Source: Candidatus Latescibacterota bacterium (GTDB lineage: Bacteria; Latescibacterota; UBA2968; UBA8231). From it: a DNA stretch of 64,000 nucleotides. A program made the translations under genes and the position numbers. The DNA is taken from assembly GCA_965197905.1 (NCBI GenBank), contig CBDAOB010000002.1, forward strand, positions 32,001 through 96,000. The letters are read 5' to 3'. A model generated the notes under the pieces. That model was not told the DNA's origin. It saw only the letters and a program-made list of their open reading frames with translations, and did not search any database. Position 1 is the first letter of the stretch. The number at the start of each line of letters is the position of its first letter. Shown here piece by piece: positions 1,823-5,995 of the stretch.

Positions 1823-2718
1823 CTTTAACGTTTTTCGGCTTTACGACGTGGGCCTGATCCCGAATAGGGATTGGCGCGGCGGTTGCCAAAGGCAATCGCT
1901 GTGACAAAAGGCCCGTGTGCCCGTAGGGCCGAGGGGCGAATGCCCCGATGGTAGGGTCGAGAACTGGCGCGCCAGCCTTAGGGTTCGGTGGGTTCCCCAT
2001 GGCTTTCGCCATAGCCCTCAGTCCGACTCCCATCGCTACGTTTCCAGTTCCCGCCGCCTCAAACCGGACGTGCGGATCTCCCGCATCCGGCTTCCCGACG
2101 AACGTCACATCCAGGCACACGCCACAAGGACTTCACCTGGTAGTCAAGCTGCTTCCGATGCATACTAGTCTTACTGCTGGAGGCAATAGGCTCACGCCAC
2201 TCTCCAACCCTCTGCACTTCCGCAGCATGTCCGAAGTCAGGCCCCTTCCCTCCACCGGAGTTACCCGGCTTCCTCGGTACTACGCGCCTGTCCGCCACCT
2301 CATCCAGCCCAGTCTGGCCCTCGCGGGTTACCGGTTGGAGGCACTCGCTGCTTCCACCGGATGAGGCTTCCCGTGTTGCGCCACATCTCCTCTTACACAC
2401 ATGCTGTCGCCACTACCCCGGCGGAACAGCTGGGTGCGCTTGTCGCTCGACTTCCCCAGCTGCAGCGGCCTTCCCTGGTTTACGGGCAGGTCGGCTTCCG
2501 CATTACACTTTTCGAGGCCTGCTCAGCGTTTACTCACGTTACGGCCTGTGTGCTCGCCAAGTCGCCCAAGGCGACCCTCTACACCGGAGGCTTCAGCGGC
2601 TTCGTCGCCTCCACCACTGCTCCGATTGCTACCGGCTGGAGCGACCCTTGCCGGGTGGGATTCGCACCCACTGAAGATGTGCGCCTTAGCACGGCGCACC
2701 GTAAAACCGATGTTATAT
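1823..2718 (-). repeat. attC-like site interrupted by a group II intron (halves 2700-2718 and 1823-1950)
   Basis: Rejoined minus strand reads ATATAAC ATCGGTTTTACG | CATCGG...CGTAAAGCCGA AAAAC GTTAAAG. Arms TCGGTTTTACG and CGTAAAGCCGA are complementary. Confidence 0.8.
1951..2699 (-). mobile_element. ORF-less group II intron (IIB-like), 749 nt
   Basis: 5' end GTGCG at 2699. DIII-like GTAGTACCGAGGAAGCCGGGTAACTCCGGTGGAGGGAAGG. 34-nt DV GAAGCCGGATGCGGGAGATCCGCACGTCCGGTTT (2094-2061) with AGC triad and AC bulge. DVI ends CGACCCTAC. DIV is only about 140 nt with no RT ORF. Confidence 0.92.
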
Positions 2719-3467: not shown

Positions 3468-3557
3468 ATATAACGTTACGCCGGTTGCCGAACTCGCGAA
3501 GCGAGTTGCCGTAGGCCAAGGCGCGGAGGCGTCGCAGCGGCAACCGCGCTGTTAGCC
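3468..3557 (-). repeat. attC-like recombination site (90 bp)
   Basis: Minus strand reads GGCTAAC...CGGTTGCCG...CGGCAACCG...GTTATAT. It starts 6 bp after the cassette 1 stop. Homologous to 755-844. Confidence 0.88.
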
Positions 3558-4828: not shown

Positions 4829-4870
4829 GGCTAACAGGTTGTATCCGAAGTGTGTTTCTACTATTCAGAC
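4829..4870 (-). other. attI-like primary recombination junction (G/TT at 4835); upstream extent uncertain
   Basis: GTTAGCCGTCATGTC matches the inverse end of cassette 1, but no attC hairpin lies upstream. It sits between the integrase and the first cassette. Confidence 0.65.
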
Positions 4871-5153: not shown

Positions 5154-5995
5154 TCATCTCGTCTCATCGCGATTAGGTAAATCTCCGTCTTTAAGTTTGA
5201 TGTTATCCAGTGGCGACCGAATGCGCCGAATATCTTTCTGCATCACATGGGTATAGACCATCGTCGTCTCCGGTCGCTGTCCAGATCCTCCGCTTTCAGC
5301 CGGACGACTTCGCTGACTCGTAGGCCGGCCGAGTAAGCCACCATGAGCAGGGCTCGGTGCTTGGGGTTTCTCAGAGCGTTGAATATCCGAATCACTTCAT
5401 CACGGCTCAGGACGATGGGCAACTTGCTCTCGCGACGTGGTCGGGGTATCTCCTCCACGATGGCGGGTCTGCGCAACACCCGAAGGAAGTAGAATTTGAT
5501 CGCGCTTACGACTTGATTGATGTAGGCTCGGGAGACCTGCCGCTCATCGATCAGGTAAAGGAGGTATTGGCGAATCTCCGCCTCTTCCACGTGGCGCGGA
5601 TCCTGTTGCAGAAATCGTTGGAAGCGAAGCAGATGATTGCGATAGGACTTCTGCGTGGGCGGACTATAACCTCTGAGTCTGAGTTCCTGGTCTATCGGCT
5701 TGAGGAAGGCCTCTTCTGTGGGCGAAAGTACGGTGCGACGACTCTTCCGAGCTGCCGCGCGGGAATGTGGGTTTCGGATTTGACGTTCCTTGAATAGCTG
5801 CTGCAGACGCTCGATGGTCTCCTCCGTATGCGGTACACTCCAGCACTTCTCCTGAGGATGCCATCGGTAACCTGGTACCTTCTTGATCTTGCTGACCTTG
5901 TCGGGGTGATACGAGAAAGATACTCTGAGCCGTCCGGATGGAGCTTGATCTATTGATGCGCTACGGAATCCACCAGATGTCGAATGGCATGAATC
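5154..5995 (-). pseudogene. Integron-integrase-like tyrosine recombinase with internal deletion/frameshift and no in-frame start
   Basis: One frame is open 5995-5243: N-terminal extension, SAM-like ELRLRGYSPPTQKSY, KLPIVLS, YSAGLRVSE. A second frame (about 5276-5154) reads RPETTMVYTHVMQKDIRRIRSPLD with the catalytic Tyr. The K, HxxR and LLGH region is missing. ATG at 5990 is out of frame. Confidence 0.9.

Follow-up and report, generated by a model that had tools for sequence, protein, structure and literature searches.

The question raised by the locus considered here is how a group II intron that carries no open reading frame (ORF) has come to lie inside an integron recombination site (attC), and to lie there in the same orientation as the gene cassettes around it. 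The window analysed is a stretch of 64,000 nucleotides (nt) from a Candidatus Latescibacterota bacterium (contig CBDAOB010000002.1, positions 32,001 to 96,000), and the element is an intron of 749 nt on its minus strand (Table 1). A sequence-only reading of the same DNA had already placed the ends of the intron exactly where they are found here, and had proposed in addition that it is mobilised in trans and blocks recombination at the attC that it occupies. The answer reached in this work, which we hold to be quite probable, is that the element belongs to the class F-like (IIB-type) group II introns, is non-autonomous, and retrohomes into attC sites on their top strand by reading the sequence there.

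Domains and class of the intron

The identification as a group II intron rests in the first place on the ends of the element, which starts with GTGCG and finishes with AC, in keeping with the GUGYG/AY pattern, both ends being identical in 12 copies. The Rfam model group-II-D1D4-4 matches it with 106.8 bits (cut-off 49), which speaks for a fold of domains I to III (DI–DIII), and Intron_gpII with 39.2 bits (E 6.6e-6), which is 0.8 below the cut-off of 40. A consensus fold of eight ORF-less relatives, whose eight rows comprise two related groups of four, resolves all six domains, as the earlier reading had required, with two-sided changes in 51 of the 213 pairs. Domain V (DV) contains the catalytic triad and an AY bulge, and DVI a bulged A, at the position (−7) that had been proposed for it; the AGC triad read previously is also confirmed, whereas the length of 34 nt then given for DV has to be corrected to 33.

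No ORF for a reverse transcriptase (RT) was found inside the intron, and tblastn with the RT of a sibling intron, described below, gives matches only elsewhere in the genome. What DIV does contain is a stub, GTGAGCC, in which a resemblance to an IEP (intron-encoded protein) start had been noticed; it aligns with the start-codon hairpin of the RT-coding sibling as its homologue, and in other ORF-less relatives the loop of the stub hairpin reads GCAA or GTAA.

As to class, the intron is class F-like (IIB-type) and not class C. A class C ribozyme has a CGC triad, a short exon-binding site 1 (EBS1) and no EBS2, whereas here the triad is AGC, EBS1 is 7 nt long and EBS2 is present, which agrees with the earlier description of an ORF-less, non-class-C element; nor does the site resemble those of the IIC-attC introns (bottom strand, at TTGT/T in R'', opposed to the cassettes), since insertion is in the top strand. 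In PMC3753933 a 5-nt DV loop is a feature of classes E and F, and DVI is long in class F, both of which are seen here; the same source gives as further class F characters an alpha' at the end of the DId stem-loop and an extra DId bulge. The RT of the sibling, which like class F proteins has no endonuclease domain, is 62% and 55% identical to two plasmid RTs, to which PMC8919778 gives the label F(g2-g5), and 46.8% identical to that of Ni.ha.I1 (class F, g3, Table S2 of PMC3552965). In a tree of 34 rows, class C and E references being left out, it is united with Ni.ha.I1 and the two plasmid F RTs in a 100/99 clade, apart from the g1 and D references; this placement is that of the sibling, the ORF-less copy having no IEP to place. 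Class E had been a first guess, which was abandoned once the nearest RTs bearing a class label turned out to belong to F.

Proposed recognition of the attC target

A simple core near 4830, next to a tyrosine recombinase gene, marks the beginning of the array; this makes the minus strand the top strand and puts the intron in cassette orientation. The intron splits the attC directly after its left arm, 12 nt past the R'' box, and when the flanks are joined without it they form an attC of 147 nt with complementary arms, so that the earlier account of the insertion holds in each of these respects. The boxes R'' (ATATAAC) and R' (GTTAAAG) agree with the consensus (RYYYAAC / GTTRRRY), and reverse-complementing R'' gives GTTATAT, the core that precedes it where this cassette starts, a rule that the neighbouring cassettes also follow. 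The spacer is asymmetric; the bottom strand folds with −38.7 kcal/mol (z −5.1) against −29.9 (z −2.8) for the top strand (200 shuffles), R and L boxes being paired, and the length is slightly above the range of 57–141 nt given in PMC5371416. The long terminal structure of this attC (1823-1950) is unique in the genome and resembles that at a further locus, L149; a shorter variant of it (joint 1854-1907) is abundant in runs X1, X2 and X5.

The intron nucleotides that would read this site were located by covariation. Among 80 related RT loci the 5' end could be located in 47 and the full 5' exon in 43, which together with the window intron gave 44 rows. The best covariation partners of exon positions −1 to −5 are intron nt 216–220 (75–86% Watson–Crick), and that of position +1 is nt 287 (81% in 36 rows), while the pairing scores of EBS1 and EBS2 lie above those of all 1000 shuffles (30 distinct rows); the rows are related, and hence do not amount to independent tests, and the covarying relatives mostly sit outside attC sites. 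Further upstream, TA(A/G) is present at exon −18 to −13 in 15/30 distinct rows, as against 1–3/30 in other windows.

Because the R'' box, the spacer and the L'' arm of one attC family between them supply the motif, the good targets that the genome offers are for the most part left arms of attC sites. In genome-wide counts from which a truncated copy was excluded, 9 of the 30 sites with TAAC, at least 6/7 EBS1 pairs and C are occupied, as compared with 3 of 10,952 lacking TAAC; if TAACA is demanded there are 15 sites, of which 9 are occupied and 10 are, by eye, attC left arms. An attC profile built from 12 seeds of the array on contig C2 of the host genome (G000, with contigs C1, C2 and C3) gave 61 hits, 51 of them with a YAAC anchor, and a score of at least 7/8 was found for 4/4 invaded and 3/47 uninvaded profile-found attC sites (Fisher p 1.4e-4). 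This profile took the place of a heuristic genome-wide attC finder, the hits of which (4771 raw, 1285 filtered) were mostly noise.

Relatives with a different EBS1 occupy the same register. Genome G002 has five intron 5' ends (three full RT introns and two fragments) and G020 has one; the full introns have EBS1 CGUGAAU and 5' exons with a compensating C at −4, and for 2 of the 4 a complete attC can be recognised by eye. A metagenome scan with the EBS2 region yielded 21 loci, eight of which belong to the attC group by their Id3 loop; all seven members for which a 5' flank is available follow an attC-type left arm (four distinct arms), those at the attC register carry EBS1 CGUAAAU or CGCAAAA, and the group includes three ORF-less introns of 745–747 nt and one further member that is internally deleted. 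In a DI–DIII tree of 19 rows, 13 intended rows being left out, the seven clade rows form one group (Shimodaira–Hasegawa-like approximate likelihood ratio test, SH-aLRT, 97). Viral contigs gave no matches to the EBS2 pattern. Since EBS1, EBS2 and EBS3 all pair with the attC, and relatives with other EBS1 sequences sit at the same register, targeting looks, on sequence grounds, like ordinary base-pairing retrohoming rather than hairpin recognition of the IIC kind.

Two of the metagenome loci, L151 and L158, have a common 5' exon and different attC right arms and 3' exons around the intron, for which recombination between intron copies and an assembly chimera through the repeat are equally likely causes.

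Table 1. Positions of the intron, its guide sequences, the attC that it divides and the neighbouring cassettes, in window coordinates.
Feature	Position	Strand	Basis or remark
ORF-less class F-like group II intron, 749 nt	2699..1951	minus	Rfam, genome copies, consensus fold
Domain I	2684..2378 (approx. nt 16-322)	minus	Rfam and consensus fold; compensatory changes in closing stem
EBS2 GUGU	2508..2505 (intron nt 192-195)	minus	pairs with ACAY-like bases overlapping R'' end and spacer
EBS1 CGUAAAC, Id3 loop	2484..2478 (intron nt 216-222)	minus	covariation, 44 rows; pairs with last 7 nt of 5' exon
EBS3 G	2413 (intron nt 287)	minus	pairs with first base (C) of 3' exon; best column for exon +1
Domain II	2367..2297 (approx. 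nt 333-403)	minus	consensus fold
Domain III	2289..2239 (approx. nt 411-461)	minus	consensus fold
Domain IV without ORF	2238..2095	minus	hairpin approx. 2205-2179 homologous to start-codon hairpin of RT sibling
Domain V, 33 nt	2093..2061	minus	Rfam, consensus fold; AGC triad at 2092-2090, 5-nt GAGAU loop
Domain VI, long, about 104 nt	2057..1954	minus	consensus fold; branch A at 1957 (-7)
attC left arm of cassette 2	2718..2700	minus	R'' 2718-2712, spacer, L'' (intron-binding site 1, IBS1, 2706-2700, 6/7 pairs with EBS1)
attC remainder	1950..1823	minus	first base C (IBS3), terminal structure, L' (about 1845-1836), R' (1829-1823)
Cassette 2 ORF, 115 amino acids	3196..2849	minus	no family found
Cassette 3 ORF, 291 amino acids	1748..873	minus	APH-family phosphotransferase domain (PF01636)
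attC of cassette 1, uninvaded	3557..3468	minus	L'' has only 5/7 pairs with EBS1
Cassette 1 ORF, 405 amino acids	4781..3564	minus	TolB-like propeller and C-terminal sorting-like domain
Tyrosine recombinase adjoining array	5923..5246	minus	cassette strand; internally deleted and frameshifted

The recombinase adjoining the array has an N-terminal extension, the catalytic middle part being gone. An intact IntI scoring above the family cut-off is encoded on another contig (G000:C3:204281-205219), about 85 kb from another array.

Copies, probable driver and lineage

The genome contains 13 near-identical copies of the intron, 12 of them full (nine identical, three with 1–2 differences) and one truncated after nt 700. 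Eight of the 13 follow an attC left arm in the same register, as judged by eye. Four of the remaining five lie within long sense frames, including a nuoH-like gene; that copy (L009, in a nuo-like operon on G000:C1) stands about 70 nt past a frameshift at a G run in the sequence as assembled, which may be either a true lesion or an error of sequencing. Both intron junctions are present in contigs of two samples (X1 and X2), and the read depth over the intron core is about 20–30 times that of the flanks. A promoter scan gave 3 sites as against 2.5 expected, none of them within the intron.

The search of the genome also revealed the RT-coding sibling, which bears out the earlier view of the intron as non-autonomous. 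It is an intron of 1985 nt (G000:C3:1187174-1189158) encoding an intact RT-maturase of 441 amino acids with YADD, the domains of which are RVT_1 and GIIM only; its first 225 nt, including EBS1 and EBS2, are identical to those of the ORF-less intron, and its DV–DVI region is 85–87% alike. The sibling is likely to be the driver of the ORF-less copies, and there is a high likelihood, judging by these comparisons, that the intron is non-autonomous and mobile in trans. The sibling and an ORF-less copy form a tandem (L041, G000:C3:1186425-1189158) placed within an attC left arm, the cassette concerned being one that we take to resemble a HicAB toxin–antitoxin pair; a comparable head-to-tail join is seen at L173, and such tandems may have originated by integration of intron circles.

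The mechanism that we propose would run as follows. The intron would be transcribed with the array or with a host gene and spliced with the help of the sibling's RT/maturase, after which the ribonucleoprotein (RNP) would find, in order, a TA (probably read by the protein), ACAY, a short spacer, a 7-mer pairing with EBS1, and C, the pairings being those indicated by covariation; by count, it is the R'', spacer and L'' of one attC family of the host that provide this motif. Reverse splicing would then take place just past the L stem and, an endonuclease being absent, copying would use a replication-fork primer. Replication-fork priming is established for introns whose proteins lack the endonuclease.

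As to lineage, the closest named relatives are labelled Candidatus Latescibacterota. The composition of the intron itself appears to be mixed: nt 1–225 are 96–100% like RT siblings, and its DIV is 76–81% like that of other ORF-less class F introns, one non-attC intron included, as against 56–64% like RT siblings. From this we infer that an old ORF-less DIV may have been joined to a DI from an attC-reading RT lineage.

Within the phylum, a related family frequently harbours ORF-less class F-like introns of 730–791 nt (L170-L172, L174, L176, L182, L183, L185, L187 and L191), which vary in their EBS sequences, lie outside attC sites and have one DIV remnant in common. The host has a second ORF-less intron (G000:C3:349429-348603, minus strand; L042, L198), for which a search of 61 genomes gave no RT parent, the matches being confined to its 3' end or to part of its DI. 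It also has 11 near-identical copies of a group II intron that is g1-like and encodes an RT (e.g. G000 C2:381-2600), one of them in the C3 array region (314618-316837), and a further RT-coding group II intron (G000:C1:175770-177800, about 450 amino acids, 30% identical to the class F RT) near the C1-cluster attC sites.

Alternatives, known systems and wider meaning

A number of observations weigh against the proposed retrohoming into attC, and are best considered together. The whole intron folded as a single sequence does no better than shuffles (z −1.33), which is why the domain assignment is based on Rfam and the eight-sequence consensus. Copies are not exclusive to attC sites, 5 of the 13 lying outside them, and a complete right arm is present at only five of the eight attC-type sites (uninvaded attC arms in the host genome are also imperfect); among the metagenome relatives, a strict automatic arm-complement check gave a clean right arm at 1/7 clade loci (L151) and flagged two non-clade loci as well. 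The TAACA rule was tuned on occupied sites, so that its hit rate is inflated, and the attC profile missed both the long attC of the window and incomplete sites, other attC calls being made by eye. The sibling stands head-to-tail behind an ORF-less copy, and its own 5' exon mismatches EBS1. In four runs no joint skipping exactly 1951-2699 was found, as would mark an empty allele; a joint 1868-2695, which contains 8 other letters and on one of its sides has no more than 21, is too ambiguous to assign. Nor was a spliced joint found in four runs, the RNA run X6 covering the intron and not its flanks, a pattern that DNA carry-over could explain given that the element is multi-copy. Finally, raw GC skew gives a G-rich intron strand for 13/13 copies, yet after correction for gene orientation the sign is mixed, with values below or close to zero at the C2 array and at C3:300k.

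An unlikely but not negligible alternative is that this is an ordinary ORF-less class F intron, the motif of which overlaps attC left arms by chance, so that its excess in arrays would reflect nothing beyond tolerance of insertion there. The five copies outside attC, four of them in sense frames, are what such an intron would produce, and the occurrence of the upstream TA(A/G) across the lineage means that the R'' match is partly inherited; the abundance of ORF-less class F introns at non-attC sites in related genomes also suits it. The sites of all five stray copies carry the same sequence motif, though, and the link to attC drawn in the earlier reading has to be qualified to that extent. What speaks against chance overlap is that four EBS1 variants, from three genomes and at least four metagenome sites, keep to one attC register, and that where EBS2 GUGU is combined with another EBS1 no attC right arm is seen by eye (five loci with both flanks usable: L143, L146, L153, L154 and L159).

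The sequence-only reading had favoured a different outcome at the site itself, namely that the insertion blocks recombination and locks cassettes 2 and 3 together. In its stronger form, a domesticated lock kept because it stops IntI recombination and fuses the two cassettes, with splicing restoring the transcript, we regard this as distinctly improbable. The insertion does enlarge the terminal region from about 110 to about 860 nt and displaces the first unpaired base, and an intact IntI exists elsewhere in the genome. A drop in recombination at this attC is plausible, because long terminal structures can hinder correct folding (PMC5371416). Nevertheless the intron sits beyond the L stem and leaves the R box, spacer and L stem intact, and an equilibrium model of bottom-strand folding still predicts pairing of the outer R/L stem, with a probability of 0.5–0.77 with the intron and 0.43–0.63 without it; the chance of attC folding is thus probably lowered and not abolished. 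With these stems still pairing, and the integrase beside the array already broken, the claim of a block has so far found no support. A selfish element in a recent burst fits better than a lock, since the copies are nearly identical and some lie inside ordinary genes.

Very unlikely, in our view, is structure-guided targeting as in the IIC-attC introns, where the RNP would recognise the folded attC hairpin and need little base pairing. The fixed site at the end of the L stem, beside an unpaired base, would suit such a mechanism, as would the emptiness of most non-attC motif sites (1/5 occupied, with three that have full TAACA and a reasonable EBS1 match left empty); against it are the full match to a 7-nt EBS1, EBS2 and EBS3, the way in which attC occupancy tracks EBS1 pairing, the five copies at motif-bearing sites without an attC, and a top strand that offers no hairpin upstream of the junction. 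That the driver is another RT, such as that of the multi-copy g1-like intron, is the least likely of these possibilities: the 11 copies of that 32%-identical RT intron and the one further RT (30%) are present, and relaxed 'driver' proteins are known (PMC2882425), but those RTs group with g1 or outside class F, it is the class F lineage that is marked by the upstream preference for TA, and the class F sibling has the same EBS1 and EBS2 and 85–87% of DV–DVI in common.

Of known systems the nearest in habit are the IIC-attC introns (S.ma.I2 and its relatives; PMC3001079, PMC7923331), which likewise are a monophyletic lineage, with a fixed spot in attC and no endonuclease, and which insert in the bottom strand, opposite to the cassettes (PMC3001079). 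They differ in being class C and RT-coding, with a CGC triad, an EBS1 of 3–4 bp and no EBS2, and in inserting at TTGT/T in R'' with use of the hairpin, whereas the window intron is class F-like and ORF-less, enters the top strand after L'', and has a 7-nt EBS1, EBS2 and EBS3. [quoted passage not shown] The same paper (Sonbol and Siam 2021) describes IIB introns in arrays: UHB.I2, a CL1 intron that lies just downstream of an attC and is oriented like the cassettes, and H.ha.F1 and H.ha.F2, truncated class E introns; as far as the accessible text goes, these are a full CL1 and truncated class E introns occurring as single cases, with no fixed register inside attC shown, and are not an ORF-less multi-copy family. 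The named class F introns (Ni.ha.I1, D.a.I1, Pe.th.I2; PMC3552965, PMC3753933) have in common with the present element the 5-nt DV loop, the long DVI and EBS1 with EBS2, and resemble its sibling in the RT-X protein of about 440 amino acids and the intron length of about 1985 nt; the accessible portions of these sources mention no attC targeting for them, whereas the window intron is without an ORF and its guides match attC. ORF-less introns are rare in bacteria and usually accompanied by a related IEP (PMC4424553), and trans-mobilised ones that outnumber their drivers have been shown (PMC2882425). These, the TeI3 introns of Thermosynechococcus elongatus, arose by one deletion and reach new targets by EBS change, which is alike; they differ in being CL/IIB1 with an endonuclease and in having targets other than attC, and in the present case the ribozyme domains appear to have been exchanged with RT siblings, the ORF-less DIV being more widely common.

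Two kinds of intron are therefore each already published, separately, namely IIB introns oriented with the array in which they lie and ORF-less introns mobilised in trans; a class F or an ORF-less lineage at a fixed attC register was not found in the literature searched, most subscription papers being outside the reach of that search. A broader proposal, which we put forward only tentatively and would not expect to survive whole, is that class F holds a lineage that reads attC as plain sequence on the cassette-sense strand, made up mostly of an old ORF-less chassis gaining guide domains by recombination with RT siblings; that the two ORF-less introns of the host serve one attC family each; and that identical copies in the same register act as portable homology, swapping attC arms and rearranging arrays without the integrase.

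Class C introns that read the bottom-strand attC hairpin have been regarded as the chief invaders of integron arrays. The retrohoming proposed here would mean that a different class of intron reaches attC by RNA–DNA pairing on the coding strand, where splicing out is possible, and would provide, ready-made in nature, a guide design directed at attC sites. The ORF-less intron and its sibling would offer a compact pair of ribozyme and driver for the study of class F mobility, and the locus a clean test of what a large insertion beyond the L stem does to IntI recombination. Lastly, copies in the same register may provide a route to cassette fusion or to the swapping of attC arms, and in this way would bear on how cassettes form and change.
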